The position numbers and the translations under genes are program-made. The notes below the pieces were generated by a model. That model worked only from the letters and a program-made list of their open reading frames with translations, made no database searches and was not told the origin of the DNA. A stretch of DNA of 63,054 nucleotides, filler included, from Asterionella formosa (Eukaryota): assembly GCA_002256025.1 (NCBI GenBank). It is 23 parts of 23 records of this genome, joined end to end, with 100 filler letters (N's around TTAATTAATTAA, not from the genome) between each part and the next. Parts side by side here need not be neighbours in the genome. Positions count along the whole stretch, not along the records: positions 11,795 to 37,860 come from NKIB01001859.1; 22 more parts are not named here. The stretch is one strand, 5' to 3'. Positions 15,829-37,860 of the stretch are shown piece by piece (the stretch's first letter is position 1; the number at the start of each line of letters is the position of its first letter).

Positions 15829-16889
15829 TTCAATAGTCAGGCCAGAGCCGGAAATATGATTTGAAAGCAAGACAATCGTGCACCCTGCACAACACCCAAA
15901 CACGTATTGCATGTACACTGCTATTTTGTAAGACTCCCCCTCCCAGCCTACCGGTACTACTTTTAGCAACTACTATATGCATACAGTAGCAGTATGGTAT
16001 CCTTCAAATTATACATATTAGATCACACCCTGTCCTTTGGTCAATTCACAATGATGGTAGTCTCTAATTTACGAACACCGCAAATCATGAATTCATCGAA
16101 AAAATTATAACAATAACTTTCAAACATCAGTCATGGAGATGCAAGGAAAAATTTTATACAAAGAATCATACAAACAACAAATTGTTAGTAAGTTACCGTA
16201 CATTCCTCAACATCATGTTACTATTATTACCCCCCGTCGCCTCCTCACACAAATGAATTGACATGCATACCGGTAGTCCTGTAGAGTATACACAATAAGG
16301 TACCCTTTCTCTACTACTGGTATCAGAGTGGTGATTCATACAAGGAGAAGGATTTAACATAAAACACAGCACGTAGAAGCATGACAACGTTCAACTGTTC
16401 GTCTGACCTTAATTTAACATCGGAAGTGGCTTTGGCGGCTGAGGTTCCCCCCATTATCGCGCCTTCGACTGTACTCGCCAGTGGCGTGATGCACCCATGA
16501 TTTTCGCACTTGTACAATAGTGTTTATATTTATTCCTGATTCTTCAAATGTTATGCTGAATGGTTTACGACAATGCTCTAGGATGTTAGGCTCGCAAATG
16601 GGTATTTCTATATACCTACGATTTGAACCTCAAACCACAAGAATAATCCATGGATATATTCAATATTACATTAACCATTATATTCCATAGAATTCTGTCC
16701 ATTCGAAAGGATCAATGACAGATGCCTTCGCCATCTCGCAGTCGGGTCAAAAAATGTATTCATGTGAAATAAAAAAGTTGCTTGATACATGATCTTCTTC
16801 ATTTAAAGAAAAGCCTTTTAAAAGGAAGGATAGAAGTATTTCATATGCAGTTGCTTGATTAGTGAGCTTCTTCATTTATAGAAGGTCTT

Positions 16890-17132
16890 CTAAAAGGAAG
16901 GATAACAGTACGAATTGGTAATGTCTCCAAGTGGATGACGAGACCGCTTGTTCTCGTTTGGATTTATTGATGCGTCGTCATCCCAAGTTCGTTTCCTCAC
17001 AAGGGGAATAATAGTGCTGTCCGCGATTGATGATGATGGGACTTGATTCGTTGTTGTAGCAGGAATCGACCACAAAGGTTGACTTATGGTAGGTTGCCAG
17101 AGGTATTCATTGGTAACTTGTTGTTGCGCCAT
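16890..17132 (-). CDS. Small orphan protein A1 (80 aa) with a bipartite NLS-like motif and a D-box; paralog of 31061-31318
   Basis: Shares QPT..P.WS, TTTNQ, IPLVRKRT..DDAS and KR.R.PLGDITN with A2; ACAATGG start context. Confidence 0.7.
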   Translation of the reverse strand: MAQQQVTNEYLWQPTISQPLWSIPATTTNQVPSSSIADSTIIPLVRKRTWDDDASINPNENKRSRHPLGDITNSYCYPSF

Positions 17133-18847
17133 TGTAAAAGAGTTGAATTTCGAAGTAGAATGAGGAAGGGAAGTATGCTTCGGTAAGAAGGGTGAAAACA
17201 GAATAAAATAGTGAGTATATTAAAACTTGCCAACTATGCCGCATGGATGCCCAAATCATGTGACCAACACATGCGCTTTGCACGACAAGAATAACTACAG
17301 AAATATACACGACCCTTGGTATCGCTAACCACGAAATCGGCGCAGCCCGATTCTCTCTTTCGTATTGGATGCAGTCTTGGGAAGGTTCGCGCTTCATTAT
17401 CCAACATACCGATTCAGTCCCATGTAGCAGAACTCGCCAAATCTACGGACACCAGAAAATACACACCGATAGCTCGCTTCCCCCGCTCAACTGTTGGATC
17501 TGCCCTTGGCACGTAAGGCCATCATGATGAATGTCTATCGTATAAAAGTATCTGGTACCAGGTACCAGGTACCGTCAAAGGAACCCGAGAAAGTTTTTGC
17601 CTGCCGATGGACAGACAGAGAGTGATAATTTTCTGTTTTCGTGTGGTGGTCATCCCAACAAGCATACCGGTATTTAATGTGGTGAACCGTTATATACCGG
17701 TCGACTGTACCAAGGTTACCGATATTTATGGTTGTCCGGAATTTCCAAGTGAACAGCCATAATGAAAGCTTTTAAAAGGTCACGTACCCTCGTATTACCT
17801 AGGTCTGACCTATTGTACTACCTGTACTCCCAGGAGTACTATCTTTTGCTGCTAGCCGTCGTGTTAGTTTTCACTATTACCCTTACTCTGTCAATTCTCA
17901 CTATTTTTTAATTACTTATTTTGTGAGCCTCTTAATCTAAAATCCAATTTCAAACCCATTCTTGGCATTGCACAACACACTTTGAGAAGCTGTTTTTTGT
18001 GTTCCCTTTTCACTGATGCAATCCTTCTTCAGATTGAACTAAACATCAATCTTGTTAGCAAGCTTCTTGACATCATAGGAACTCACCATTGACTCCTCAT
18101 TGGACTATAGTCGAGTCCAGCCACAGTCCTTGTGACTTGTTGTTATAGCCATCGATGCTATATTCTTGACAACCGGTATGTATTTTGCCATTCAAGCTGG
18201 GGGTTATAGGGTTTACATGCATTGAAAGCATGAACAGTGCTCTCCTTTTGCATCGTTGCTACAATTCAGCCAGTCTCTAGCCATTTTGTTTAGAAAATCA
18301 ATTGGTTGCAGTCTTTGGTACTATCAGCCAGTCTGACTTGGAGATGGGCAATGAAACAAGGGAATCTAGTAGCAAATGATTGGACCATTTTGGCTCATCC
18401 CCGCATTTTGGAAAGAGTTTGTTCATGCGGAAAACCTGAATCCTTGCATTCCCTTACACTGAAAATTAGTAGCGCTAAAACAAAGTGGTGTGCTTTCAAT
18501 GTATCATAATGCTAAAATCACACATTCAGTGAGTTGAATCATTTGATAGGACTTCTTGTACCAGGCAGGTAGTAGTCATCATTGGTATGAACCAGTAGGC
18601 ACATTCTTGCCAGTGAGATTTAAATGTGTTAGTAATGTGTGTTGGTCCATTTGGGCAATGCCTGTAGGCATATATAGCTCATGATGGATTATATGTGTCA
18701 TGGCTTAACTACATTGCTATATTGAGATGTTTGCATGCTCATGTACTTGTAAATATTTTGGTCAAATGTCGCAATAAGCATCCTCACTACCAATACTGGT
18801 AGTTAATTTCCCCCATGTGTGTTGTACTAGTACATAGTATGTAGAGA

Positions 18848-19108
18848 ATGAAAAGGCGGGCGGTTCTTGGAACAAGCCGAATTTCTCATTGCAGCTTCAA
18901 GGAAAATGGCGACCATGATAGAACAACAAGCAATAACACATTTCAGCCACAAGTCGCTCCAGTAGACTGGAACCAAACAACACTCAACATCCAGGCCTAT
19001 GACCACCTGCAAGACACCACACCAGCAGTTTCAACAACAATCCCACCAGCTCAGAACATTGATAGCAAATTTTTTCCACAACTACTCCTGCATGAGGGGG
19101 AGGAGTGA
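18848..19108 (+). CDS. Possible small orphan protein (86 aa) with RxxL and KEN motifs
   Basis: Begins MKRRAVLGTSRISHCSFKENG with an ATG start. No paralog supports it. Confidence 0.3.
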   Translation: MKRRAVLGTSRISHCSFKENGDHDRTTSNNTFQPQVAPVDWNQTTLNIQAYDHLQDTTPAVSTTIPPAQNIDSKFFPQLLLHEGEE

Positions 19109-19946
19109 CCACCATGAAAACCTCCACTGTTCTCTCTCGACTTCGGAGCAAGGGTTACCTATCTAAATCGGTGCTGGTACATAGAGATATTTATCATAAA
19201 AAAGCCCATTCCAATACTTACGTCCTTTGTCTTTATCAATCACGACATGGTGTATATATACATGTATTGTCTTGATGACAAAATGAGCTTCAAATATTAA
19301 TGACTTTATTACTGTATTTCATTTTAATTGTTCCTATGCAGCATGACATAATTGTTACAAGTGATCACAGCGACGACATGTGGAGTTATTTAATAGTGGT
19401 GCCGAAACGCTCATAATTATTTACGGGGGGGGGAAGGGGGCAACACAAAAAACTTCACTTTTAGTACAAGCCAAATCGTTATGACATTTATCAATTAGTT
19501 CGAATTGCGCGGTTGAATCATAATGGTGCCGGTAAAATGATAAATTAAACTGCAGTAATGTTACCGCCAGTAAGTACTACTGTGTACTTCGTACTGTACA
19601 ATGTATGTATAGTCGTGCTGGTTTGGAGCGAGATGTAGAAAAATTAAAAAAGTATGATACTGGTACTATAGGTACATGGGACACTGACATAATAGGTACA
19701 GACAGAGCGTAACGAGAGAAGCACAAGTTATAGGAACGCGAAGCTAACTCTCGTCGCTTGCGTCGTTGGCCCTTGCTTAGAATCACACTTGTGGGAAAAC
19801 CAGTTGTTAAATTCGCAATTATAGTATTGCTTAGCCCCCCTTCGTGCACTCTTCAAGATCTAAAACAAACGCCAATCAATCCAATCAAGCAGTAGTGAAG
19901 ATACTATTTATTTATTACAGTTTGGATATCGGTAGTCACAAGAACA

Positions 19947-20948
19947 ATGGCGCGATATCGCCATTCAGCTTCGTGCACATCAGTTGATACGGACGAGTCG
20001 GAAGTGGACTTGTATGCTGTGGTGGAAGGCCGAGCTAGGTCCAAGCCGTCCACGTCGTCGCGTTTAGAAGAGGAACTGGATGATCTGGAACGAAAAGGTC
20101 GTGCCGCTATTAAGCATCGAAATGTTGAATGGAGGTCTCATAGCAGACGCTTGGACGGTCGCGGAACGGAAAATGATCTTGTTGTACCACACACTGAAGA
20201 TGCTCTGTTGCATAGAGTCATAGTCTCTATTAACAGCAGGAGCAACAACAATAACAGTAACAGAAATCCTACATGCCATGCTCATCGTCAAAGGCAGCAG
20301 CGTCCTAGTACTACCGATTCAAAGTCTCCCAGAACTACTGAGGCAGATCGAGGCGTGTTGCAACTGTCTCTAAAACACTCTCGCAGAGATATGGCTGTTG
20401 TTACTCCCAATGCAACTGCTGCTGTGCTACAGAAGCATCGAACGTTCATCAAGGACGAAGACTTCCATCATAAGCCTTCCGGTGTGATGGGCAATGGCGG
20501 AAGGAGGGAGACTGTGCGACCAAGATCGCTCTCTACATCAGAATCATCAAGTCGTGCAATCATGATGAAAAAACATGGATTGGTGTCGAAAAGTCATTCA
20601 AACTTTGAAGCAGCCACCAAATACAATAACACACATAGTGCTACTAGACGTGACCATGCTCCTCGTCAGCGATCCATGAGCTTTACTACGAAATCTCAGT
20701 ATCAAAGTACAAAGGATACATCTCACTGTCCCCCCAACATTCACTTGGCCACCACAACCACCACCAAGTCGATCGCCTCCTCAGGGGTTCAAAAGTCAGT
20801 TGTGCCACAAGTTACTCCTAATCGAGGATTCTTCATTGGTACATTCATTGGTCGACATTCAAAACAAAGTCCTGATGGTCGTCAAAAACAGCAGCAATGG
20901 AAGACTGACAAGGAAAAAGCATACATAAATTCATTATTTCAAAAGTAA
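19947..20948 (+). CDS. Ser/Arg-rich disordered orphan protein B1 (333 aa); paralog of 31844-33184
   Basis: Long ATG ORF sharing DLYAV(V/I)EGRARSKPS and a C-terminal TD..K.Y...LF motif with B2. Confidence 0.75.
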   Translation: MARYRHSASCTSVDTDESEVDLYAVVEGRARSKPSTSSRLEEELDDLERKGRAAIKHRNVEWRSHSRRLDGRGTENDLVVPHTEDALLHRVIVSINSRSNNNNSNRNPTCHAHRQRQQRPSTTDSKSPRTTEADRGVLQLSLKHSRRDMAVVTPNATAAVLQKHRTFIKDEDFHHKPSGVMGNGGRRETVRPRSLSTSESSSRAIMMKKHGLVSKSHSNFEAATKYNNTHSATRRDHAPRQRSMSFTTKSQYQSTKDTSHCPPNIHLATTTTTKSIASSGVQKSVVPQVTPNRGFFIGTFIGRHSKQSPDGRQKQQQWKTDKEKAYINSLFQK

Positions 20949-21848
20949 AATAAATATCATGATCATTATATGTATGATTCATGTGCTGGTACTTGATATA
21001 TTAATAACTATCACTGACTATTATGACAATTAGCTATTGATTCATAATTCAGTTGCTCAAAAATGAATCATTGCTCACAATTTCCAATTAAGTATGCATG
21101 AGGTATTCTAACGCACATATCAATGGCCAAGGGGGAATCTCATTTGAATAGCTCCTATAAAAGTCACAGCCGCCAGCCAGCCAGCCAGCCAGAACAACAA
21201 CAACAGCAGAACGGCAGTTTCCATTTAAGAAAACATCTATACATCTCTAAGTCAGGGAATTTATTCGATGGACAATGAAAAGAAATGATTGATTGCCTTT
21301 CTGATCCAGCCATAGCACTTCATTCTTCCTACACCGGCTCACAATACATTTGCTAATTTTCTGCAGGCAATGCGCCTCACAAGACATTTGCTAATCTTCT
21401 GTAGGCAATGCGCCACCGTCCATTTGTGTGGCCGTTTGTTGAGTGCTCTGATCGCTTGCACCTCATTCAATGTTGCTTTATAATCCATAACTTTCTTATT
21501 CGCTTTCTCACTCTCCTTCTGCTCTGCTCTTCTTTTCTCCTAGTCATATCGTCAAGTGCTTCCGCTCCCAGTTTAAAGCGTCCAGTCGCCACATAAAGTC
21601 CTGCCATGCCATAAATATACCTTTTATTTTGCGCGATCGCCAATAGCGCCAACTGGCAAGCCATCTGATCAAGATTGATGCCGACCACATGCTTGTGGTG
21701 CTGGAGTCCCCCCCCCCCTCTCACCGGAAAGTTGTGTTTGTTGAGTCTCATGCTGTTCCGGTCTATTGGCTAGATTATTGTTTCTCACACTGCTGTGTTT
21801 ATCTGCATTACATGTATCTGGTGTCAAAGTGGACGATGCAGTAGTGGT

Positions 21849-21950
21849 GGCTCTGGTTCCAAAGGTAAGTGTACTGCTAGTTTCGATTTGTTCTGCTGGG
21901 GAGCAATCCAATAGCACTATAGAATTCAAACCCCCTACTACTGGATCTTT
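21849..21950 (-). pseudogene. Kinesin motor C-terminal fragment (degenerate)
   Basis: KDPVVGGLNSIVLLDCSPAEQIETSSTLTFGTRA resembles the kinesin consensus DSLGGNSKT..I.C.SP....ETLSTL.F..RA. Confidence 0.5.
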
Positions 21951-23203
21951 GTTGTCATTATTCAATTTCTTCACAGTATACTTCACCATTTCTTTTGTTA
22001 ACCACGTTTTTGTGTCAACTTTGTCTGCTACTTATAATCTAGATAGCAATAGCGCCACTTGGTAAAACAACTCCTCCACCGCTAGCCTTTCTAGCGTCTA
22101 CTTCTCTGACATTGTTGTTTAGTAGAACAAGCTTTACTAAATCCTTATCTAGAGACTTACAAATAATTCTGTACTTGCTCGAGGTTTGGTACTTCTTCGG
22201 TTAATTACACTAAGTTGTAAGATCCGGAGAAATGAAAACGTGGTATATTGTGATGGTCTCAAGAGCATTACAGAATGCATCTATGTTGACAGTAGAAAAT
22301 CACTAAATTGCCAAGGTGCGAACTAGTGTGCATGTTTTCATTGGGATGTCGCACACAATCACGCCGTAATTATCATCCAACAAAAGAAAAAAGCGGCCCC
22401 GGCTTAACCCTAGTTTGGAGAAAATATCACTAGGGTTGTAAAAACGGCTTGGAACAGGGAGTTTTCTACTATGAATTCCCATGATTCGAGTGTCGATTTG
22501 AATATTTGAATTAAATAGGAATCGGCGCCAGATTGATAGAGTTCCATTCAAACAAACTAAAATGATATTAAAACGTTTATACTATATCAGCATTGCTGGA
22601 TGTAAACATTGTTCTGCTCAATGCAAAAACACATGTATAAATCAGGTGTTAAATTCTTCTGCAGTCTGACTGAAATGCTAGCTCTTTCTAGACAAGCTCA
22701 GTGTATTAAAACCTTCTGTTCTAATCCCACCTTATTGTGAGCTTATTTGATCTATCTTGTAATCGTTCACATGACCAATTATTAAGGTTCTCTTCCCAAA
22801 TTTGTATATAGATATTCATTGTGTTGTTAGACATTCAATTCTCAACTGACAACTCAACTCCACTCACTTAGTAGAACAATCGTGAATATTCAATGCTATC
22901 TGCATTGCATATATACCTTTCCTTCATTGAAATATTGATTACTTAGAACATTCTCCATTCGAATATTTACCTTGGTTTGCTGATATAGTTCTTGGCAATC
23001 AATGCTGTTCAAATTCTCACAGCATTTCAATACAGGATTTTGGCTGGAATATTATTCAAGATTGATTAGTTCGACTGAATTAATATGCACGCAGTACTAA
23101 ATCTTGACACAGGAGCACCCCGACATGTACGCTCATCGTTCGTGTTTATACGTTGCATTGAACCTACCCTACTGTATGTAGGCTAAATAAAAATCAGTAC
23201 GGT

Positions 23204-24706
23204 ACCAGCAAGTTGCGGTAATTTTGCTGAAACTAATGATTTAGCTATCTTTATCCGAGATTAAAATGTTAGTTAAAGGTTGCGGCCCCGCAGTTACACA
23301 ATGCGAAGTCCGTTTTTCCCCAAAATAATTTTATTGTGTACGTCAATCCACACAGTACGAGCAACGAAATAAAACAGGTAAAGGTAAAATTAGCTTTCAC
23401 CAATACGACTACTTTGCATATGCTTAGATACAGTCATGGGTCGACTTGGTGGTATGATCTATACTCATTTCTGCAGAGAAGTGGCAGTCATCCCTCTTGG
23501 AATTTATTTAAGTGAAAGAAACGTGAAAACAATATTTCGGACATAACTCTACATCGATAAAATCTGGGCCTGCTCCTGCCTTTACCGGCAACTATTTGAA
23601 AATGAAATAGTTCGTGGCAATGAGAAATTTTTTTAGCTATGAGCAAAAATTTCAGGTACTGAGCAAATTTATTTAGCGACGAGCAATTCCTCAGAGCAAC
23701 GAGCAAATGCTATTAGCCATGAGGAAATCTTTCGTGTAGTGAGCAAATTGGAGGGTTTATAAAAATGGGGATGCCAAATCACTAAGTACGGTTATAATTT
23801 AAACTTACTTAAAAAACGAACATGGATAGGCAGCCAGCCGACTCCAATGGTCGGTTGTACTTGCAAAGCCCTTCAGGCGGGGTGAAACGAAAAAGCGCGC
23901 AGACAGCGCAATCACCGAACCTTCCACCCTGGTTCCACTGTACCGGTAGTACATAATCTCGGTTTCATGACGATGGAAGACAGGATGAAACTAGTGCCTG
24001 GTACCAGTACCGGTGAACCGGTACTGATTTTACCTGCTGGTATACAATACATGTGGTTCAAGTGTGGCTGGCATGTTTTTCAACCAATCAGAATATGTGT
24101 AGTGACACGGCAACGTACCCTGGAGTCTTTTCGCACTGAGAGCTGAGCAACAAAACATACCTACGCAAGACTCTAACTCTACAAGAACGTTTTGCACATT
24201 CAAATTCCGATTCCAATATTTTGGCGACTGTTGAAAGAGCCGATCGGGTAGACTTTTTGGAGGATGATTGCTCTCCATTTGCGGGGATTCATCCAGATTA
24301 AGTAGATAGCCGTGTACCCTATATTGTCAGGAGTTAACTTCTTGAGAGAAACTGCAGTTTTGTATTGTAGATTTTTAGAAAAGCTTCGTAGCCCCTTTTT
24401 TGACTACAATTTTTGCGATGGTTATGATTCTACGATACTTAAGTGCAGTTCCTTTCCAGAGATGAGGTATCCGTAGATAAAAGATACCCCTAAGTCGACC
24501 CATGACTGTATCTAAGCATGTGCAAAGTGGTCGTATTGGTGAAAGCTAATTTACCTTTAACTATTTTATTTACTTGTACGTAATGTGTTGATTAAGGTAC
24601 ATCGTAAAATTATTTTGGGAAAAAACGGACCTCACAATGTGTAACTGCAGGGCCACCTTTATTTGGAGTATAAAACATAAGCTAACAAATCTCGAATATG
24701 AAGATA
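23204..24706. mobile_element. Non-coding foldback/long-TIR element; arms about 23245-23457 and 24483-24706
   Basis: Imperfect inverted arms of over 200 bp (e.g. TAGCTTTCACCAATACGAC...CAGTCATGGGTCGACTT and its reverse complement) around a spacer of about 1 kb. Confidence 0.85.
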
Positions 24707-24721
24707 AAATGTCGGCCCAGC

Positions 24722-24737
24722 TAAGAGCATCGCCAAG
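24722..24737 (+). mobile_element. Left terminus of PIF/Harbinger element A (TAA plus GAGCATCGCCAA TIR)
   Basis: Matches the Tourist/PIF-type (A)GAGCATCTCCAA terminus with a TAA target triplet; GACCAAA-rich subterminal repeats follow. Confidence 0.6.
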
Positions 24738-25126
24738 GCATCGACCAAATACCAAGCCAATTGAAGTTGCGGGTCATTACACGTCATGATGCGTTGAGTT
24801 GGTCGAAAAAGCAAAAATATTTTAGCCACCACATCAACCAAGACCAAATATGCTTTGGTCTTGATCGAGGATGACCCCCTTTTCGACCAAATATCGGGTA
24901 ATGGTTGATTAGACTCCGACCAAAGCCAAATAAAAGGAGCATTTCTATTGGTTTAGATTGTGGCACACGCCGGCAACCTAACGTTTATAGTTTAATGAGT
25001 GCATACATAATCACAGTACATTCACTATGCTCTCTTCATTTAGATTTCTATAGGCCAATGTGATCTTGGTGTTGTGTATACATCATATTGAGTCAACATC
25101 ATAAAACAACAATCGTCATTGTTAGG

Positions 25127-25892
25127 ATGGGTTCCGGTGTCACGTGGGAGAAGGAAGAGGACGAAGCACTCTCTCGGGCCTGGGTAGCTGCAAGTGAAGA
25201 CGCAATCACTGGGACTGGTCAGAAAGCAAGAAAGTTTTGGAGCAGGGTATTTGAGATTTATGTTGAGCTTATCCCAGATGGGAAGGATCGCACCTCAACA
25301 GCGTGCACTGCTTGATGGGGAACAATCAATCAAGATGTGACAAAGTTTTGCGGCCTCTATTCACAGGTTGCGTCCATTGCTAAATCAGGTTGGCCAGACG
25401 ACAACACCTTGAAGAAGCAGGTAGAGAATTCTTGTTTGAAGGGTGTTGGCGAATTTTGAAGGATGCCCCAAAGTGGAAGGGTGGCTGTGGATATCTCCAC
25501 GATCAGCAGCAAATCGCAAAGAAGAGTCCTGAGTTACTAGATGTGTGTCCCATAGGGACGAAATCAGCAAAAGATAGTAAGCTGCTCGCAAATGCTCAGC
25601 TTATCATTGAACATAAAAAACACGTTCAGATGTTGGAAAGAAAGGTGAAGACGCAACGTGATGAATTTTTGTTTAAGATTTTCTCTCTTAATATTATTCA
25701 GAGGAAGCTAAAAGGAGGTTTGCTATGAAGGCTCAAGAAGCTATGGAGGAGATGGAGGATAGTTCAAAACCATCACGCAAAAAACCCAAGAACGGTTCTT
25801 TGGAGTCAGGCAGTTCAGTTGAAATCGATGTTTCAACTTCTCGTTCATTATCTATTGATGATGAGGTTTCGACTCTAGAGACTGGACCATAA
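25127..25892 (+). pseudogene. Harbinger A Myb/SANT-like (NAM-associated-type) accessory gene, with a stop and frameshifts
   Basis: MGSGVTWEKEEDEALSRAWVAASEDAITGTGQKARKFWSRV...*WGTINQDVTKFCGLY...FEGCWRILKDAPKW...PIGTKSAK. Confidence 0.85.
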
Positions 25893-26012
25893 GAGTATTA
25901 AACTAGTTTGATAAAAGTGACATTACATTACACTAATCCTTTCATTATTGCCAATATAGAACTTGTATTTTACAGACTAAAAAATATACATCTAGAATCA
26001 AGTTATTATCTA

Positions 26013-26273
26013 CTATTTGTTCTCGTTTTGAGTCCACAAGTGCTCGATCAAATTGTTACGCAATTGAAAGTGCTCAACTTCAATCATGTAGTTCATTCTA
26101 ATATTCTTGAAATCAAAAAATGTGTGTACATTGTCATGATTCACGTTGTCAACCAAAAATCTATCCTGAATATTGTCAAATATTGTGGTTGGTTGTTGAT
26201 GGCAAACTGTACTTTTGGAGTCCTTCCAGCTGACAAAATTCTTGATTTGCCATGAGTCAACACAGACATGCAA
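26013..26273 (-). pseudogene. C-terminal remnant of the Harbinger A (plant-type PIF) transposase
   Basis: Ends HFQLRNNLIEHLW (HxxLxxDLIEHxW motif) and is convergent with the Myb gene. Confidence 0.6.
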
Positions 26274-26348
26274 GATCGTCTATACACTTCTTCTTACACT
26301 TCCGCTTGCCATCTTCCCCTTTCAGGTTTACAACAAGCAATCAGCACC

Positions 26349-27753
26349 ATGTCATCATTGTCACTGCACAACGACGAACAAATGGATCAACATTGGACTG
26401 AAGGTGCCATAAATATCAATGATGGCAATGATGATGATGGTAATGATGTCATCAGTAATCAATTTTTTTATAATGAAAACAATCATCAATTCTTTGATTA
26501 CGTGACCATGATCAATTTTTTATCATTTGTCATCTGGCTCTGGAGGCTGAAACGAAAGTTAAAAAGAGGAAGACGAAATGGGAGCATGAGAAAATGTCAT
26601 GGCATTCTCATGTCAAGAAGCTGTGTCATGAGGACGCTTTTGAAAAGACTTATAGAATGTCCCTTCGAGCCTTTAAGAAGTTGGTTTACTTGCTGGAGTG
26701 TGATGTCATTGGGATTTTTTTTAAGTGCGGTACAGCTACTCCCATTTAACCAGAAATTTTGCTGGCCATTGGCATTCGATGGTTGGCTTGAGGCAGCTAC
26801 ATTGAAATTCGTCATGCCAATGGCTGTAGCATAGCTTCAATCTATAGATGCCAAGATTCATTTCTTGAAGCTGTGCTTAACTGTGATTATCTGAAAATTA
26901 TATTTCCTAAAACAAGGAGTGATTTGGTGAAATTGGCTATTGCCTTTGAACAAAAGAGCACAGAAGGGTTGATCAGAGGGTGTGTTGGTGCTATTGATGG
27001 TTTTTTAGCCACAATTAGTCACCCCATGCTACGTGACTGTGGAAACAATCCAGGAGCTTTTTATTCTGGACATTACATGACTTATGGTTTCAATGTTCAG
27101 GCTATCTGTGATGTTGAGAGTAGATTTATATTTTTTGGGGTGATTGCTCCTGGACAATGCAGTGATCAAGTTGCGTTTGAGAGAACTGCTCAACCCAACA
27201 AAACTGCATTATTTGATTCTGGTTTCTATCTTTTTGGTGATGCAGCATATACATTGTCAGATGTCATGTTAGTTCCATTTGTTGGTTCTCATCGTGATGA
27301 CCCAACACAAGATGCCTATAATTTCTTTCTTTTCCAGCTAGCCACGGATTAGGATAGAAATGGCATTTGGTTTGTTACAGACAAAATGGGCTGTTCTAAA
27401 AAGAAATTTAAAAACTGGTTTGGAAACAACTGCAAAAGTGCTTGAGGTATATGCACGTTTGCAATGTCATAGACGAAAATAAAGTTGATAAGGATATTTC
27501 TGGGTCATCTGGAAGTGATGAGGCAGATGACATCCAGGAGATTTTAGCTGAAATCACTCCAGTCTACAATTCTCCACTTGGTTGGGGATATTTGCCAACG
27601 GTTGAGAAATTGGATGTAATGCCTGGTAGTTCTGTCATTCAAGATGTTATTCTTGAAAGAATTGCTAACATGGGTTTGCAAGGACCTCCAGGTAATATTG
27701 AAAGAAAAAAGGTTGGAATTACATGAATTAAGTTTAATGTGGATTATAATTGA
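26349..27753 (+). pseudogene. Harbinger B HARBI1-type DDE transposase, frameshifted
   Basis: FEKTYRMS...F, LAIGIRWLA.GSY, GCVGAIDG, FYSGHYMTYGFNVQAICD, GDAAY and RIEMAFGLLQTKW. Confidence 0.92.
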
Positions 27754-27774
27754 TTGTTGAAAAACAATTATTCA

Positions 27775-29304
27775 TTTCAATGTGTCACCTTGAGACAAGA
27801 GATTGAAGACCTGATCACGCTTTCTTTTACACAATGCATTTTATAAAAGAGCTTGGACAATGTCAGAACTTGAAGAGTCATAATCTTTTTTTTCGAGTTC
27901 TTCCAATTCCTCCTGCGCAACTCTTAGTCGGACCTCATACTTATCCAAGACATCCAGTAGATAATTCTCTCTGCGTGGTGCAGTTGTAGACTCTAGCAGT
28001 CTGAGTTTTGCAACATTTGACTTCCCAAATGATTCCAATGCACTTGCAAGTTTTTGAGAAGATGATGTAGGTTTTTTTCGTCAAGATTGCATATCTTCCC
28101 TTCTTTCTAACACTGAAATTGCTTGAAGATTTTGATTTTGATGACAATGTGGTGGCAGTATCGTCAATGTCTATACTCTCACGGAAGGCATAATTTGGTA
28201 ACAGTGGTACAGCAAAATTCAATAGATGTGGAACTTGACACAACCCAAGATGTGGAACTTGACACACCCAAAGATGGTAGTAATATAAGAAATGACGTGA
28301 CCCAACAAAGTTGATAAAATCATCATGATTGCCTGATTGTTTGTTTTTTCGATAGGCAACTTGATAATGATGATTAATGTATCCCATTACCAATGAAAAG
28401 TCTTTGGAAGTGAGGACATCATATTTTTTTGCGTAGTCAGCATCAATTCCAACTTGGTCCCAGTATTCATCTTTGGGAAATGCTAGAATGGTGCAGTCAT
28501 CATCCTCATCATCATTAAATGTGACAACAAGTCGATTGACAATGAACTTGTGTCGAAATCCTCTTGCATCAAGTTCAGCCAGAGTTGCTTGGTGGCTGAC
28601 CTAGACGCAAAACATCACTGCGATGCTTGTTGCACATGTAGACATTAATGACACAGAAGTATGTGTTGCTGCAGGTCACAGCATGTGGAGGGGTTGACTT
28701 TGCCTGTGCCTTATTCTTTTTCGCTTTTTTACAGGAGGGTTCACTTCCTCTTGTTCAAACTGAGGATCAACAAAACACTCAAGTGGCTGCACTGCTGTTG
28801 CCTCTTGAACTTTGTTGTTCCTTTCATCATTATCATCTTCGCAATCTTCATCAACTTTGAATTCCTCATCATTAATTGATGAATGTTTTCATTATCATTA
28901 TCACTATCCAATTCAATGTCTGATTCATTGACATTGAAAGATCTAGGGTATATCCTCTGTGACAAGCTTTCTCTCTTCAAAAGTCGAGCAATCAAAGCAA
29001 CAGTGAAAGTCTTCTTCGCATTTTTGTATCCAGAAACTTTGTATCTAACGCAAATTTTTCGGAGAACCTTGACCGAGATCTGCTTCATTGCAACACCTTT
29101 GATGAAAATCACCTGTGTCCTTTCACTATCAAGCACAAAGTCATCAGGAAGTATGAGGGAGTCAACAAATCGATCGACTTCAGTATCTGTAGCAAGAGAC
29201 TGCATTGTATTGTTGAAGGTGGTGGGTTGATCTTGATATACAGTGGTCTCCACATCAACAGTTGTTGTTAGCGTTTGTGTGACTGGTTCCATATGCGGTT
29301 CCAT
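27775..29304 (-). pseudogene. Harbinger B accessory ORF, frameshifted, convergent with the transposase
   Basis: Pieces ISVKVLRKICVRYKVSGYKN and KQSGNHDDFINFVGSRHFLYYYHLW plus a coiled-coil tail, lying between the transposase and the right TIR. Confidence 0.6.
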
Positions 29305-29584
29305 TTGCCTTGCTTGTAGTATCTTCAGGGAGATTCCAATGACTGATCTGTAGTAACAAATACACAAAAACACTTGGGAATTAATTATAAGATCGCCAAG
29401 TATAAGTTTGTGTCTGGTGCCAAATAATTGTATCAATGGTGTTGCTTGGACGATGTACGCAGCCAGCATAAAATTGAAGGAATAGTATATGCCATATATA
29501 TTATCAATGGTGCCTTGCCGTGCAGGTTTATTTTCGGTTATTTTAGTAGTGACAACGGAAATGATACCCACGTGAAAACGTCAG

Positions 29585-29758
29585 TATCACTGATACCATT
29601 TTTGGAGGGGGCAAAAAAGGTATCAATTTTGTATCAATGATACAAAATTGATACCATCAAGTTACCATTGCTGATACCATGTTTTGATACCAACCGTCAC
29701 TTTTTGCCCCCAGCCCGGAAATGATACAGCAAATTCGGAATGATAAGAACGACCCTAA
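29585..29758 (-). mobile_element. Right terminus of Harbinger B: TGATACC subterminal repeats, a palindrome, and TIR GGGTCGTTCTTATCA with TAA
   Basis: ...TGATAAGAACGACCC|TAA at 29741-29758; perfect palindrome with 18-bp arms at 29619-29655. Confidence 0.7.
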
Positions 29759-30356
29759 AAAAATAACCGAAAATACGCCTGCAGGGTAGTACTTTTGTTG
29801 ACATCTACATAATATACACAAAAGTTGTATGGTGTGCATCAAAGAAGCACCATGCAATCATTATAGCGGCCGTGTGTGGCAATGTTCAGCCACAACACCA
29901 AAGAACGACAACCACAGAGTCGAGAATTGAACAGATTGAGTCATGTGCATAGAGACATAGTACCTGGTACCCGGTATCTAATTACAGTTACCTGGTACTA
30001 ATATTCAAAAATTCATGACAAAGTATAGGAGAGAAATAGTACAACGTGCCCCAGGTAAGCAAAGTCATTCAATAGTGAACAGGCACGGTATGGTAGAAAT
30101 ATGTATGACCAATTCATATGTATGTTGAACAACCCATGCATGGATTTATACCGGGCTAACCAACAGATACCTGGCTGGTACCTGGTACCAGGTACCAGAC
30201 AGCAGTAAAACCAACAGGGTATGAAATTAATTATATAGCACACATTAGTAGAATTAAACATTTGGTAAACGTATTTCTCTTTGTCCGGCAACGACTGGGT
30301 TTGTCGTGATTTGCAATTCAGTTGTTTATATCGTGTTTCCACTTTCCTTTTCTTAA

Positions 30357-30520
30357 GTACTAGGCAATAGAATACGAAAACGATCACGTGACTACGACAT
30401 ATACTAGCTGTCCAAATACTTAGGCTTTGGCTGTCACTACCGGCGCATTCTACCATCACTCGTCCAGCACGTACTAGGCAATAGAATACGAAAATGATCA
30501 CGTGACTACAACAAATACCT
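30357..30520. repeat. Direct repeat pair of about 50 bp (30357-30406 and 30471-30520)
   Basis: GTACTAGGCAATAGAATACGAAAA(C/T)GATCACGTGACTAC occurs twice. Confidence 0.9.
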
Positions 30521-31060
30521 GTGCAAATACCATTGACTATAGTAGTCCATATACCGGTAGTCCCAGGTACCACGCGCCGGGGTGCTGGTAATAGCAGTGG
30601 ACGCTCCTGCAATTCATTACCAGCTACCAGGTACTGTCATCCCGCCAACGGCTTTTTTTGCTGCTTCCTCCGTGTTGCTAATTCTAGCGATGGAATAAGC
30701 AGCAGGCATCGCTTTTGAATTAGTTTCATGGGACTAGCCTTGCCTGTTCGCTGATGCATATTGACCCATATGCTGGTACATGCATAGGTAAAGAAATCCA
30801 AATTCTTTTGAGAGGGACTCGTTCCGAATGACTTGGAACAAAGCTTGCCACGAATGCACCCAAGATTGATGAGGTAATGGTTAGCGATATAAAGGGTCGT
30901 GGTTTGCAGAATTATGTGTCGGTTCTGGCCAAAATGTAAAATGAGAACAATCAATCAATAATAGCATTACGAATTTTGTCCATGAAACAGTTTTTGATCT
31001 CACAATTTCGATTCCTCCACATTTACGTTTTCATTTATTTCTAACAACTATTATTCAACC

Positions 31061-31318
31061 ATGGCTTCACAAGATACAGTTCAATACTTCCTGCAACCGA
31101 CCAATCTTCCTGTGTGGTCAGTACTACCGGTCAGCACAACAACTAATCAAGAGGCCCCATCCTTGTCAATATCATCAGAGGACTCGACAAGGTCCATTCC
31201 CCTCGTGAGGAAACGGACATCAGAAGACGACGCTTCTTGCAAGTCATCCGCCACAACCAAGCGATTCCGGGAACCACTAGGAGATATCACGAATTTGTAC
31301 TATCCGTCATCCTATTGA
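31061..31318 (+). CDS. Small orphan protein A2 (85 aa) with an NLS-like motif and a D-box; paralog of 16890-17132
   Basis: IPLVRKRTSEDDAS...KRFREPLGDITN; ACCATGG start context. Confidence 0.72.
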   Translation: MASQDTVQYFLQPTNLPVWSVLPVSTTTNQEAPSLSISSEDSTRSIPLVRKRTSEDDASCKSSATTKRFREPLGDITNLYYPSSY

Positions 31319-31843
31319 TTGCGACGGCGATGAAAGGCGTTTCCTGCAGCCTTTGTACGAACAAAAATTATTATACCAGCACTATGATGCTTTCAAAAGT
31401 AAAATGTAGCTGAGGTTCGCCCGAAAACTAAATTGTATGGTACTAGATTATTTCTGATAATGCATTAATTGAGTGTCGCAAAACCTCGGTAGAGTGAAAA
31501 CAACGCTTTGAATGAGGCCTACAAATGATGTTCGCCAAAAGCATCATAATAATAACCAGTCTTCAGTCCTTGTCGGGGCAATACACCATTTCATGTACAC
31601 AACATGCTTTGGCACCAGGTAGCGCATTGAACTCGCATTCAGCAAGGACTACAATGAAAAGCAGAAAGGTTAATTCGTCATATACTGACACATACAGTAT
31701 TTAGTCCACTATTGATGAAACTATGCTCAGGTAGTGTTCTCACGATTATTTAAAGCAAGGTACAGTATATCCATTATTCGGAATATAAGTACGTTACGTT
31801 ACTAGTACTTTTGATTCCCCGAATACCACTACTCAATGATGAA

Positions 31844-33184
31844 TTAACTGAACAACATGTCCATGTACTTCTTTCTGCTACTATCTGTCATTTCTTGTCC
31901 ATCCTCACGTCGGAGACCATATGCAGACGCCTCACAAGAAGGGGAGGACGACAATTTGCGTGTCGCTGACCAAGCAATAGCATTTTCACATGACACACGA
32001 CGCGACATGGTTGTTGGCTTCAAAGCGGCGATACTTTGCCACGAAAGTTTTCGCGTTTCCTTTTTTGCTTCCAAGGACGACGTTTTTGTGTCCGAGTTGC
32101 TCTTTGCCGTAGCGTCGGTACACATAAACTTGTCGTTGGTGTGATCCCATGGATCTGGTTCCACACTGTTCAGTGAACTGTTAGGTCTTGGTTGACGCAA
32201 AGCACTTTGGTTTTCTCCAATGATGTGATTCCTATCCGCAGCACAAGCAGTAGTAGCCCCTTGTCTCTGATGCATAGTGAAACCATTTCTCCCTTGTGCG
32301 GTCGCTATAACGTCACGTCGAGGTCGAGGTCCAGGATCCTCGTCCCCCTTCAATTTCTCGATGCGAACTGCTGGTCTACCCAAAGGACGCCGTGTTGTAG
32401 TAGTAGTCTTGACGTCTGAGGTTTTCAAGCTGGTTTCCGAGATGGGTATCAGGGGTCCAAGATTCCTTGGCATGGACGGTATGGAAAGCAAGTGAACTGG
32501 ACGATCATGATGTGACTGTGCTGCGCTTGCTGGGCGTAATTCTTGGGGTTTACTAGAAGAAGTTGGTGAACTTTTGCGGCTTCCTCGTGAATGATCAGAC
32601 TGAGTAGTCAATACTACCTGTGTCGGGACCTTTCTATCTTCCAATTGACGGTGTTCTGTGCTTGCTTTGTTCCTGTCACACGATTCTGCCGATCCACTGC
32701 GCACTCGATCCATTGACGACAATGGCGCTCGCTTCATTTTCGCATTCTCTTGATGAAATCGATACCTCTGTTCAAGGGGAGTGTCTCGACTGGGCTGATG
32801 CTGTCTTGATGAGCGTCCTGAACCAGCAACAGGAGGGGGACTGTGGGACCTTACAACATGTCGTCGTGTTCGGTCACTTTGTCGATGATCATGCTCTGAC
32901 TGACTCACAGTTCTGGGGCGATGAATTCGTTCCTTCTCTTCCAAACGGATGCTGCATCTGGCGCTTTTACTATGAGTCTGCTGCTTGATATCATCCAGTG
33001 AAGAAATGGATGGCTTGGACCTTGCTCTGCCTTCAATGACTGCATAGAGATCAACGAATGACTCCTCGTCAGAATCCAAGTCTTGGATATCCTCATAAGA
33101 AGTAGCAAGCTTAATGATGCCGTCCATCGACCCTTCATCGTCGTCGTCCAGTCGCATACATTCGGTTTGCTTTGAAATTGCCAT
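31844..33184 (-). CDS. Ser/Arg-rich disordered orphan protein B2 (about 446 aa from the ATG at 33184); paralog of 19947-20948
   Basis: DLYAVIEGRARSKPS and C-terminal TDSSRKKYMDMLFS; long uninterrupted ORF. Confidence 0.78.
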   Translation of the reverse strand: MAISKQTECMRLDDDDEGSMDGIIKLATSYEDIQDLDSDEESFVDLYAVIEGRARSKPSISSLDDIKQQTHSKSARCSIRLEEKERIHRPRTVSQSEHDHRQSDRTRRHVVRSHSPPPVAGSGRSSRQHQPSRDTPLEQRYRFHQENAKMKRAPLSSMDRVRSGSAESCDRNKASTEHRQLEDRKVPTQVVLTTQSDHSRGSRKSSPTSSSKPQELRPASAAQSHHDRPVHLLSIPSMPRNLGPLIPISETSLKTSDVKTTTTTRRPLGRPAVRIEKLKGDEDPGPRPRRDVIATAQGRNGFTMHQRQGATTACAADRNHIIGENQSALRQPRPNSSLNSVEPDPWDHTNDKFMCTDATAKSNSDTKTSSLEAKKETRKLSWQSIAALKPTTMSRRVSCENAIAWSATRKLSSSPSCEASAYGLRREDGQEMTDSSRKKYMDMLFS

Positions 33185-34112
33185 GTTGTTTGATGTGTCA
33201 TTAATAATTGATTCAATTATTATTGCACACAAAAATTATGTGTTGGGATGGAGCGTATCGAAACGACACGGAGGAACAAAGGAAATGACGTTGATTTACG
33301 CCGGACATTTTATTTCAGCCAACGTCAGCTGTGGTTGCCGAAGGCCATTCTTGCTGTGACCTCCGACAAAATATCGAAACACAATGTTCTTTGATACATA
33401 CCGGCATTACGGTATCTTGAATATCAGTCCTGAGCGATGCCTTATGGTGCTGGAATGCAACCTGCTGTTTGATCCTGTATTCTGCAGAATTGACGATGAG
33501 TTATTTGTTGTCAAATGACCCCGAATGATGTCACAGTTTACGACCATCAACCAATCACAAATTGTTATTGCAATGACCCACCGGGCATCCTTTGCTCACA
33601 GCCACTAAAAGTAAAGTTTTGATATTTGTGAAAGGTAATACAAGTACCTGATTACCTGTAGACTCGTATTTGATATAGTCATTATCAGAAGTACAGTACC
33701 AGGTACCTGCATTTTGGAGAATCTATACAGACATTGTAATCCAAGCATTTTTCACATACAATGACTTTAATGAAACGTACCGGTAGTTTAGGACATAAAT
33801 GGCGATATCCTCCCTGGTACCAGTGTGACATGTTGCCCTGACCAATAATTTTTAGATACTGTACTTATATGCATGTAGCGGTTTACCAGCAGGACTAAAA
33901 GTCTACGAGCAGTCCAACATAACCTGGTGCCTGGTAGACTTCCAATGTATCCACTCTGACATATGTCGACTGTGAAGTTTCGGTACCAGATTCTTCAAGA
34001 CTACCTTCGTCGGAGTGGTACCTGGTACCAAGTATTATCGCAATGCAAACTACATTTATATCCTGCTCAGAAGGATTTGCAACCTGCCAGCGTGCACATT
34101 TGAAGATCATCA

Positions 34113-34440
34113 GATACCACTGTCCACCACAACAAGAAGGGCTATGATTCAATCTTGCACACGTGAAGTATTTACAAGTAATACGGTACCAGGTACCATC
34201 AGCTACTTGAAAGTTGCTGTGCCTGGTACCTGGTACCGTTTCGTTCATGCCTCAAGTAGGACGCAGTACCGGGAGATTAGACCACCGGTCACCACAACAA
34301 GAACGGCTTTGATTCAATCTTGCACACATGAAGTATTTAGAAGTACTACGGTACCAGGTACAATCAGCTACTTGAAAGTTGCTGTCCCTGGTACCGTTTC
34401 GTTCATGCCTCAAGAAGGACGCAGTACCTGGTACCGGAAG
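34113..34440. repeat. Tandem duplication of a unit of about 165 bp (2 copies)
   Basis: CACCACAACAAGAA.GGCT.TGATTCAATCTTGCACAC...CAGCTACTTGAAAGTTGCTGT...GGACGCAGTACC is repeated. Confidence 0.9.
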
Positions 34441-35069
34441 CTACGGTAGACAAAATATTTCCAGAGGAATTTGTCGTACATGATAATCCTGGTGATTCTA
34501 CGTGCGGTACCGGTACTTGATGATTTGTTGCCCCGGACTGATAACTGGTATCAGGTAACAGGTACCTGGTGAAGTATCTAACTAGAAGTACCGGTAGTAT
34601 TATTCGTTGAATATATGAGCTAATTACCGGTAATCTTTTGTACAACTTGTTTTCCCAAGTTGACATCAAAAGCATATGGAAAGGGTGTGTATTGGTGAAA
34701 GCTCCGTTGAGCGTTATACATATTTAATTTGTTTGTGAAAAGTATGTGTTTGATTAGTCTGACTCAATATTATTTTCTTAACCCTACCTCGAGCTAGGGG
34801 TTCAAATGCAGCAACCTTAAATTCGAGTTCTGATATATTTGATATAACCCTAACCCCATAAATATCTGTATCGATGTGCAGGATTGCTCACTCTCCCACA
34901 ATTGAGGTAAAAGCTTTTACCTATGAAAAGGTTTGATACAACGAATATTAATTCGTTCTGTAATATGCATAGTGGGTTGAAAAGTAACTGTACCATTGGC
35001 ATATACTTGAATAATAGTATAAGGACCTCGTCCACAATCGTCCAAAGTAGTAGGATTATCCAAAAGTAT

Positions 35070-35429: not shown

Positions 35430-35757
35430 GATCAAAATATGATTATGTTAAAATAGTCCAATGACAATAAAGTACGATAAAATATGTATGCAAGTGTTAC
35501 CAAGACATCATAGAATATAAATCAAGCAATCATAAATTATGTTAATTAATATATATGTTTGTCGTTTAATGTATACAGTTAAAGTCAACACTTAATATGA
35601 TAGTATTATACAGTGGATAGGATCCATGTATACGGATGCGTTGATATGTACATCACTATAATATGATTTGTGATATGGATTGATGCATATCACACACCGG
35701 TATCCTCAACAACCAGCCATCACGTTCATTGTCGTGTCGTTTTTCCTTGTTATAGCT
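35428..35757 (+). repeat. Interspersed repeat segment Y; direct copy at about 50473-50801
   Basis: AT-rich block of about 330 bp, highly similar to 50473-50801. Confidence 0.92.
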
Positions 35758-35978
35758 GTATTTATACCGGTATGTGTATTGTGTAAACACTTCGCTGGCG
35801 GAACATGCATATTACACTCACTGCTCTGCACTGTTCAACAATTACTACACTCGGTTACCATCACACCAGCTGCACCTCCACAAGGGCCGCAAAAAGCTCC
35901 GCGTTTCCCTTTCACTGTTTTACATCATAGTCTTCGCTCTGGCCCTTTGACAACTTTCCAAAAGGCATTTCATGGATT

Positions 35979-37860
35979 TCATGCAAAGGATCAGTCAAAC
36001 AAAAAACTTGACTTACTTCCATCGTTTACACTACACGACTTTATGTTTTCGGAAAAGAAGATGAAGAAAATTATGAAATCAATGGAAGATTTTTTTGAAT
36101 ACATTCACTCAAAGATCAAATGAATTTGAACAGATTCATAATACTCCAGAAAAAATAATGAAGTATGCCGATACAATAGTGGCTGAGATTGAAAAGAAGG
36201 AAAGATTGCTTTCGAAGAGCCAAGGAAACCCAAACAGTTGGTCTTTGTGGATGAAGACTCTATTCGTACAGAGTCACAGATCCACCATCCAGTGTCGTAT
36301 TTTGCTCCTCATTCTCCCGAAATCGCTGATAATGAAGAAGAACTCAGTGATTCTCATTCATTTGATGAACAAAATCATGCGATGAATGAAAATATCGGCG
36401 GAAATGTGGCAGACATTTCTTCAGAAGTAGAAATGGTTGAAAAGTTGCAAAACCAAGAAACATATCTCACTATCCGTCCAGAACATCAAGATGAACATCA
36501 TGAAAGCAGAGAAACTATTGCATTTCTAAAAGAAAAGATATTCAAGAAAAAGTCCGAGCTAGATCAAGACCTCGAATTCAAGAAGATCAATGCAGACAGA
36601 GATGTGATGACCACGCTGGCTAAGGCAGTTGATGCTCTGATTAGGGAACGAAGTCAGAAACACAAAATTGAATCTTTTTCCAAATCATACATGGAAGAAA
36701 AAGAATTTCTTTGTAAAATCATTGAAAACAATCCCGAAGGCAGCTACTTTTGTGAAGAGTCAGCATTTGAAATGTGTAGAGTTATTATGCCAAAGCAAAC
36801 GGCATTTTCCTTGAGTTTGCCGAAATTGCATGGACAACTAAAATTGTGGAAAGAGATGTACACTCATACTCCACAAGAAATATGCAATTACGCCTCCGTA
36901 TTTTATGGAGTCAAAGATCTCAAAAAATCATCTTCAGATTTTAAAGATCTTGCATATTGAGACCTTGAAACATTTACCTCTATGATCCATTATATAATTC
37001 ATGAACTTCATCCAAGTGATGTAAAAGTTATATTTGATCTGGATGAGAACCCAGAAAAGGGTAATAACAATCCATATATAAACCAAGGTGATTGTCATCC
37101 ACTTCATCACGAAAGTAACTATGTGCTAATTGTGTATTGCAAAAGATCAGATGAGGAGGAAAAAAATCATTTTGTGCATTATCTTTTTGCAATAAATGAT
37201 GGATTATGTCAAGTCCGTGACCCAGGAAAAGATGCAAGTTTGGATGAACATTATGATCAAGTACTTAATTTTGCCCGTAAGTACAGGTACTGCATCATCC
37301 CCAGATGCAGAATAGAATTGGAATTGTTATGCACCAATACAGGATATCTTCCACAAGAATCCCATGTACCTGAAGAAATTGGGTTTTCGGAATCATTCTA
37401 TATCGTTGTTTGTCGTTACGCACTGTCGTTTTGTTTTGATTGTACATATCTACATGAGAACCAATGCATTTATCAATGACTACTCATTGAAGATGTGGTA
37501 TTGTGCCGTTGTTGATCGTATTTGTTGATTTGTATAGTCGTTGACAATGATGTCAATATTGCCGCCAAGCAATGCATTTCTTGTACTAACGCGCTTTGCT
37601 ACAATTCTACTACGAGTTTGTATCAGAAGCTACATGACGAATACTCAGCTAGAGAGAGTCAATAGTTCTGGAGCAGCGTGGCAATCACGCTTGCTCAGAA
37701 TGGAATGATCAGGGTTGCTTGTTTGGTGGGCAGCGGAGAGGAATGACTGTGGCGGAAATACTGCTACTGGTGTCAGGCTACTACAGCGATGCGCATGGTT
37801 GCAGAAACCAGACCATTTACGCTACATAACGATGTAGGTCAAGATTGGGTTCAGCTTTTC
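35979..37860 (+). pseudogene. Long disrupted ORF of a putative large transposon; may contain a degenerate Ulp1-like peptidase and a Cys-rich region
   Basis: 36238-36960 and 36982-37479 are in the same frame, separated by one TGA. NHFVHYLFAINDGLCQVRDPG...LPQ is weakly Ulp1-like. Cys pairs continue to the contig end. Confidence 0.4.

Follow-up and report, generated by a model that had tools for sequence, protein, structure and literature searches.

Two gene families, A and B, lie side by side twice on one contig of 26,066 bases from Asterionella formosa (NKIB01001859.1, here C1859; positions 11795-37860 of the window, the whole 63,054-nucleotide stretch of DNA that was analysed). The locus raises the question of whether these pairs constitute a selected two-gene module, as a first-pass annotation proposed, or neighbours that were copied together, and what role the short protein A may play. 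All four open reading frames were found intact on this contig at the places and on the strands claimed (Table 1), and RNA contigs from 3/3 RNA runs cover all four. The strong start contexts noted in the annotation were confirmed, with A at -3 and G at +4 in each of the four frames. Furthermore, the A1-B1 adjacency is also spanned by two abutting contigs from an independent DNA run. The stretch 18368-19601 has an RNA depth of 0-2.3 vs a DNA depth of 32, read depth serving here neither to rank genes nor to count copies. A1, B1, A2 and B2 are real, expressed genes.

Table 1. Features of the A-B locus on C1859, in window coordinates
Feature	Position	Strand	Remarks
A1	16890-17132	-	80-aa microprotein, intact; RNA contigs 16503-17221 (run X17), 16507-17058 (run X13)
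A1 D-box-like motif RHPLGDITN	16914-16940	-	aa 65-73
A1 bipartite NLS-like motif RKR-x13-KRSR	16938-16997	-	aa 46-65; last R is D-box position 1
Conserved 22-nt element upstream of A1	17310-17331	-	~180 nt upstream
B1	19947-20948	+	333 aa, Ser/Arg-rich, low hydrophobicity, single copy; RNA contigs 19856-21286, 19907-20937, 19838-20628
B1 N-terminal family motif S-x-V-D-L-Y-A-V-V-E-G-R-A-R	19998-20039	+	
B1 C-terminal motif YINSLF	20922-20939	+	
Repeat and transposon filler between B1 and A2	21453-30707	.	includes broken PIF/Harbinger-type element
DDE_Tnp_4 piece of broken PIF/Harbinger-type element	27026-27352		Pfam search
Conserved upstream element of A2	30878-30899	+	counterpart of the 22-nt A1 element
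A2	31061-31318	+	85-aa paralogue of A1, intact; RNA contig 30960-31898 (run X17)
A2 NLS-like motif RKR-x14-KRFR		+	aa 50-70; pattern match
A2 D-box-like motif REPLGDITN	31268-31294	+	
B2	31844-33184	-	446-aa B-family member; belongs to tandemly amplified set
B2 C-terminal motif YMDMLF	31850-31867	-	
B2 N-terminal motif	33020-33061	-	

The two A proteins are related over their full length. Only short motifs were said to be conserved between the paralogues; in fact, A1 and A2 align end to end at 64% identity, with 23 identities among 39 aligned residues of the N-terminal half, two lysines conserved, and a block YxxQPT..PxWS conserved in addition to the D-box region, and no alignment was found between their flanking DNA. 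The dN/dS comparison that the annotation had suggested gave 0.29 (dN 0.29, dS 1.0; pN/pS 95% interval 0.28-0.63), which indicates purifying selection on the pair. The 22-nt element is present only upstream of A copies (4 matches, control 0). A is rich in Ser, Thr and Pro and has no domain match: Pfam gave no family for A1, A2, B1 or B2 in a search of 15 contig ORFs, the PDB sequence search returned nothing for A, and Rfam gave 0 matches. Neither A1 nor the B motif drew an entry from the Atlas clusters, a blank that means neither absence nor novelty. At near length the only homologue was A itself (1/1 candidate), and the three longer matches among 557 candidates are the broken or frame-shifted A copies of A. 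formosa read through TGA, so that nothing points to A being part of a longer protein. The lineage specificity proposed for A is supported by these searches, in which no relative was found outside A. formosa.

Family B is of a different kind. It had been taken for an orphan whose paralogues share one short motif, and neither description holds: 22 family matches were obtained at E<=1e-3, B1-, B2- and B3-like relatives occur in other organisms, and B1 and B2 share an overlooked second motif, the C-terminal Y[IM]xxLF. The one named match, hypothetical protein MHU86_18375 of Fragilaria crotonensis (KAI2496144.1), shares the N-terminal motif and the low-complexity Ser/Arg-rich body, but lacks the C-terminal motif and belongs to another B subgroup. 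The metagenome and transcriptome proteins P0010-P0027 share the same motif and body and are likewise unannotated. Pfam matched 0/19 B members, the best and single PDB row, at E 5.1, is attributed to chance, and no literature was found on the B motif or KAI2496144.1. A tree of the B motif (44 columns) has long branches and leaves 13/19 inner branches open; it supports the B1 and B2 groups weakly. A scan of one metagenome gave a single near-identical B2 locus of 1490 bases. Taken by its sequences, B is an undescribed diatom protein family with two motifs, and its composition suggests disorder. Resemblances of the motifs to WH2, PIP-box, eIF4E-binding, YxxPhi and Plk1/CK2 sites are not claimed.

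That each family occurs twice is true of the contig; genome-wide, many more copies exist. B2 DNA gave 22 matches on 15 contigs (14 besides C1859) and 5 further complete B2-type frames, counts that mix alleles and paralogues because the assembly collapses the array. The amplified copies are mostly intact, and contig C13190 carries a 4.7-kb tandem repeat. The other A copies comprise two frameshifted copies, three 3' fragments and one compensated frame. The array copies have dN/dS of 0.56-0.91, and since most of the intervals extend to 1, any selection on the additional B2 copies is weak or unproven. Contig overlaps lead from a convergent B-> <-A (C12674-C10552) through the upstream side of A into array spacer (C2079), where the step from C2079 to B is inferred from a similarity of 76% at the end of a contig. 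Apart from simple repeats, the array spacer and the intergenic DNA of A1-B1 share no similarity. Regarding the surroundings, the filler between B1 and A2 has a summed DNA contig depth of at least 706 in every bin vs 32-37 on unique flanks. The transposon frames there had been described as decayed, which is right for the Harbinger-type element (~26.3-29.5 kb), broken and with indels, but not for the Copia-type tail at 11795-12640, an open frame interrupted only by the contig end.

Since B2 is multi-copy and the region repeat-rich, A and B could be regarded as genes that a transposon or virus carries as cargo or accessories, with copies spread by transposition. Such an origin is extremely improbable, however: the contig overlaps place the copies as head-to-tail or inverted neighbours instead of dispersed insertions, no terminal repeats were found bounding the unit, and the A1-B1 region is single copy except for one 330-base dispersed repeat (40/319 candidates scored). 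Furthermore, 0/61 pattern matches in viral contigs were confirmed, and the 1/19 match in prokaryote genomes is weak (E 3e-4) and was taken as chance. Distinctly unlikely, though with more to recommend it, is a selected module in which A, as an APC/C pseudosubstrate or regulator, acts with B as scaffold or target, both co-regulated in the cell or sexual cycle. Every A copy found adjoins a B gene or lies in B-linked sequence, both pairs are intact with RNA contigs in the same runs, and the frame-restored array copy of A keeps both motifs and persists in an independent assembly; B1- and B2-like relatives have contigs of the same length, 4430 bases, in another data set, where P0028 and P0014 lie, which hints at older clustering. 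But the B3 and B4 contigs yielded no A-like frame, the amplified B2 units carry mostly broken A copies, and the organisms that have B gave no relative of A, with the proviso that searches easily overlook such short proteins. Only A has the conserved upstream element, no promoter element shared by A and B was found, A-vs-B upstream alignments stay at shuffle level, and one ancestral pair could give all A-B adjacencies. An excess of shared 8-mers between the A2 and B2 upstream regions was rejected: 24/500 shuffles reach the independent runs, the strands are mixed, and no alignment beats shuffles. Thus the linkage part of the annotation's proposal was upheld by the co-location search, whereas the fixed module is unsupported, given B3 and B4 without A, the mostly broken array copies of A and the lack of a shared upstream element; the module claim is weak. 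Joint copying of neighbours seems to describe A and B better than a fixed two-gene module does, and a functional link between them is possible because every A copy adjoins B.

A further alternative concerns the D-box itself. Both A proteins carry the core R1, L4 and N9 (RxxLxxxxN) with P/A at position 3 and I/L/V at position 7, as set out in excerpted text of PMC12401543, and the annotation's naming of A as a D-box microprotein was borne out by this strong match to the published consensus. RxxL matches are frequently not degrons (PMC9713472, in excerpt), and the match might be incidental: A would then be a nuclear peptide or cofactor of small size, bound to some other partner through its conserved C-terminal block and unconnected with the APC/C. 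Conservation across the whole protein, YxxQPT..PxWS included, and the lack of a KEN box and of an MR/IR/LR tail would agree with an incidental match. It is nevertheless unlikely, since P3, G5, D6, I7 and N9 match in addition to RxxL, since all nine positions but position 2 are identical in A1 and A2 despite dS ~1, and since the genome encodes the receptors, with 3 CDC20/Fizzy (CDC20/CDH1) genes above cut-off and 1 APC10. CDH1 lies on C5347 and the CDC20s on C1087 and C1231. For a D-box chosen after the fact, the extended form arose in 0.22-0.24% of 200,000 shuffles. Moreover, A1 and A2 both fit the classical bipartite NLS, described in an extract of PMC10807245 as an upstream KR, a linker of 11-21 aa and a downstream K-K/R-x-K/R. 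Because a near-consensus D-box overlaps the NLS-like motif and CDC20/CDH1 and APC10 are encoded, A is probably a nuclear APC/C substrate and possibly a competitor of other substrates.

Overall, a moderately probable explanation is that two unrelated families, old neighbours, were copied together by local tandem duplication, with A as an APC/C substrate and B as an adaptor. A would enter the nucleus by its predicted bipartite NLS and be recognised by APC/C-CDC20/CDH1 via the D-box, most likely as a short-lived, cell-cycle-timed substrate that may compete weakly with others. Since D-box position 1 is also the last residue of the predicted NLS, which contains both conserved lysines, a bound importin could mask the degron until release inside the nucleus. 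B would be an older, presumably disordered adaptor family with an acidic-serine/helix motif at its N end and a short Y-hydrophobic-x-x-L-F at its C end. A divergent arrangement (<-A, ~2.6-2.8 kb, B->) was probably ancestral, and head-to-tail copies of this unit would alternate A and B, placing every A between a divergent and a convergent B; the window would retain the divergent pair A1/B1 and the convergent junction A2/B2, turned by inversion, an order of rearrangement that we infer. The contrast of divergent and convergent pairs is real, and one inverted duplication was said to be unable to explain it, yet an alternating tandem array and one inversion suffice. Recent amplification would have left B2 frames largely intact while A passengers decay. 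In birth-and-death evolution, local tandem gene amplification is accompanied by passenger decay, and the locus resembles it in its head-to-tail units, in partial copies that are truncated and inverted, and in its frameshifted passengers; here the amplified gene, B2, encodes a motif-only protein.

The two motifs of B, an undescribed diatom family, can serve as baits. A, being expressed, under selection, 80 aa long and equipped with a near-consensus D-box, offers a concrete and inexpensive APC/C candidate. Searches of the literature on diatom APC/C, D-box and securin, with coverage that excludes most subscription papers, listed no paper on a diatom inhibitor or securin. Conservation of APC/C inhibitors does not extend across kingdoms (PMC3406007), and hence they cannot be found by homology. 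It is very doubtful that A represents a minimal kind of APC/C pseudosubstrate inhibitor of the diatom lineage, in which an overlapping importin-binding signal gates a single D-box and both KEN box and tail are missing, and that it plays the role of Mes1, OSD1 or Acm1 together with the two-motif scaffold B, whose dosage would be raised by tandem amplification. A1 and A2 match each of the consensus D-box peptides D2 (RLPLGDISN) and D19 (RAPLSDITN) at 7/9 positions, including R1, P3, L4, I7 and N9; these peptides were assayed on human Cdc20, and binding of D2 was undetectable, which was ascribed to solubility (PMC12401543, in excerpt). A has no sequence similarity to OSD1/UVI4, Mes1 or Acm1 and is only 80-85 aa long. 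The GxEN/KEN box ahead of the D-box in OSD1, UVI4 and Mes1 is absent from both A proteins (NEN occurs in A1, not in A2), as is their C-terminal MR (or RL/IR) tail, A1 ending in YPSF and A2 in PSSY, also without LR. Unlike in those inhibitors, the D-box of A lies at the C end and overlaps the NLS-like motif. What A has in common with OSD1/UVI4, Mes1 and Acm1, as these are described in the extract of PMC3406007, is that they are short, built around a D-box and not conserved between kingdoms, and OSD1 and UVI4 form a paralogue pair, as A1 and A2 do.

Within the window, a series of contigs set apart by runs of N, the locus lies on a 26,066-base contig (window 11795-37860, G000:C1859) carrying two paralogues of the D-box microprotein (A1, A2) and two of the Ser/Arg-rich protein (B1, B2). 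All four frames were confirmed as intact with strong start contexts, each having an A in position -3 and a G in position +4. The Pfam search of the contig's ORFs gave no match for A1, A2, B1 or B2, and the contig gave none in Rfam. A1 and B1 are divergent, 2814 bases apart, and A2 and B2 convergent, 525 bases apart. About 9 kb of repeats separate B1 from A2, including a broken DDE_Tnp_4 element; the first-pass annotation described the surrounding transposon frames as decayed, which fits this element but not the Copia-type tail at the left end, undecayed and merely cut off by the contig end. The gene adjoining A1 is intact (826 aa) and encodes a split PH domain and an extended stretch predicted to be coiled; it is likely an ordinary conserved neighbour of use for synteny. 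Immediately after the stop of A1 lies a tandem copy of its 3' end (~63 bases, 83% identity, period ~73). The dispersed repeat between A1 and B1 (~330 bases) recurs in at least 39 other places at 78-79% identity. Three ORF pieces near the right end (146, 192 and 165 aa) are without convincing Pfam match, and the last 350 bases of the contig match a repeat adjoining an A copy on another contig, C2079.

Features of contig G000:C1859, in window positions
Feature	Position	Strand
Split-PH-domain gene	13348-15828	+
Duplicated 3' end of A1	16776-16910	
A1 ORF	16890-17132	-
GGTACC-type repeat words, intergenic	17552-17573	
Dispersed repeat	17842-18180	
B1 ORF	19947-20948	+
GGTACC-type repeat words, intergenic	29957-30635	
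A2 ORF	31061-31318	+
B2 ORF	31844-33184	-
GGTACC-type repeat words, intergenic	34015-34566	
Three ORF pieces	35683-37479	+

All four are real genes and are expressed. Contigs of three RNA runs and one DNA run (from 24 listed; at most three samples) were aligned over 15900-34400, the assembled RNA contigs carrying no strand, level or transcript-end information. A1 was covered by RNA contigs 16503-17221 and 16507-17058, B1 by 19856-21286, 19907-20937 and 19838-20628, and the B2 bins had depth in all three RNA runs, whereas a silent control (18368-19601) showed RNA depth of 0-2.3 versus 32 in the DNA run. A single RNA contig (30960-31898) covers A2 and reaches the 3' end of B2, spanning its last codons, so that the convergent 3' UTRs may overlap or abut, these contigs being unstranded. 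In the DNA run, 15900-21461 was covered by two abutting contigs with 62 differing letters; A1 and B1 are thus neighbours there too.

B is an undescribed protein family, and its designation as an orphan had to be abandoned. A 52-column profile built from four paralogues and searched against 1.84 billion representatives recovered 22 proteins at E<=1e-3, of which four are the A. formosa B1-B4 types (B3 and B4 lying on other contigs) and 18 are divergent, including Fragilaria crotonensis MHU86_18375 and one MMETSP transcript; no other representative looked up had an informative name. The habitats of the sequencing runs, together with this one named relative, indicate that the source is a freshwater diatom. 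All share the N-terminal motif S-x-V-D-L-Y/W-A-V-V/I-E-G/R, which occurs three times in tandem in the relative P0027. A further motif, Y-[ILMV]-x-x-[LM]-F, had been overlooked; it is present in 9 of 22 sequences examined, and in seven it lies no more than five residues from the C-terminus. Judged by composition alone (13-14% Ser, 11% Arg, ~20% hydrophobic), the B body is probably disordered. B1 groups with the outside proteins P0010/11/12/15, B2 with P0014 and B3 with P0016 (tree support 93/96 and 86/74), each nearer to these than B1-B3 are to each other; the B1/B2 split therefore predates those lineages.

Each family occurs twice within the contig, as first described, but more often genome-wide. 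The B motif has 16 matches, and B2 DNA has 22, spread over 15 contigs and showing 88-94% identity beyond the window. Since A1-B1 divergence in another population is roughly 1%, and since the first 456 bases of C13190 are repeated 4708 bases further on, the B2 copies are tandem paralogues and not merely alleles. Among 12 B2-type motif places examined, six have complete frames (one in the window, five elsewhere), four are truncated and two run off the contig. dN/dS is 0.48-0.67 between window B2 and the copies and 0.56-0.91 among the copies, where most intervals reach 1. For A there are 10 matches, distributed over 8 contigs. Beyond A1 and A2, three 5' halves converge on one collapsed 3' node, two frameshifted and one frame-restored, and three additional copies are 3' fragments; independent assemblies contain the frame-restored copy (there P0060), one frameshifted copy and one 3' fragment. 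In the restored copy (L034 on G000:C2079 with L003 on C10552) a short duplication followed by a deletion recovers a 91-aa frame, with the middle scrambled, both motifs kept and the upstream element lost. Two loci, L021 (G000:C13190, 849-1430, minus strand) and L022 (C13687), carry a chimeric frame to which a B2 copy contributes the 5' part, joined through a 42-base insert to an A-copy 3' end read out of frame. A1-B1 is single copy except for the dispersed repeat, and B3 is split or truncated in this assembly but whole in other data sets.

The layout had been thought beyond one inverted duplication. Exact contig overlaps give the arrangement B-> <-A, running from C12674 through C10552 into the 5' halves of three A copies. 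On C2079 the sequence upstream of the A copy, past a repeat insertion, enters a spacer leading to an intact B on C13006; this last link is based on a contig-end similarity of 76%. Such alternation is expected when a divergent <-A B-> unit is copied head to tail, every A gaining one divergent and one convergent B neighbour; A1/B1 and A2/B2 are these two neighbour types, with one inversion, the order of events being inferred. The array spacer is unlike the A1-B1 intergenic DNA. Spread of A and B as a mobile element seems highly improbable.

The evidence on whether A and B form a true module points both ways. A was not found away from B, one array A copy regained its frame, and two pairs of B relatives lie, within each pair, on contigs of the same size (4430 and 4662 bases) in other data sets, a hint of older B clustering. 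However, no A-like frame (best E 0.11) was found on the B3 contigs (23.7 and 3.3 kb) or the B4 contig (24.3 kb), amplification retained B while mostly breaking A, A and B have no upstream element in common, and one ancestral pair could give rise to all adjacencies. The proposed linked module is quite unlikely. Lineage specificity is supported for A, for which searches that cover short proteins poorly found no relatives beyond A. formosa.

The alignment of A1 with A2 spans the full length of both proteins at 64% identity, contrary to the view that only short motifs are conserved, and the two are under constraint (dN 0.29, dS 1.0; pN/pS 1 reached in 0/1000 bootstraps). Their flanks are unalignable except for a 22-nt element ~180 bases upstream, whose four genomic occurrences each precede an A copy. 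The best-conserved blocks are aa 42-55 (12/14) and the D-box, with a linker (56-61) at 0/6. At 7 of 9 positions the D-boxes, RHPLGDITN in A1 and REPLGDITN in A2, agree with the consensus peptides RLPLGDISN and RAPLSDITN (PMC12401543). An incidental match is rather unlikely. RxxL matches can be false (PMC9713472), and the extended motif, chosen after the fact, arose in 0.24% and 0.22% of 200,000 shuffles; all six genome-wide occurrences of exact RxPLGDI[TS]N lie within A copies. Directly upstream, RKR-x13/14-KRxR fits the bipartite NLS pattern (PMC10807245). Its final arginine doubles as D-box position 1, and both conserved lysines fall inside this motif. The genome encodes APC10 and three CDC20/Fizzy proteins, whose CDH1 and CDC20 labels we assume. 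The third, L055 (G000:C1231), stands beyond the CDH1-like and CDC20-like genes and could be a specialised co-activator. A complete APC/C is described for P. tricornutum (PMC4392632). On its sequence A is a good D-box candidate, and we lean modestly towards A and B being neighbours, with A as an APC/C substrate. A differs from OSD1 and Mes1, both defined by a GxEN/KEN box and an MR tail (PMC3406007), in having neither.
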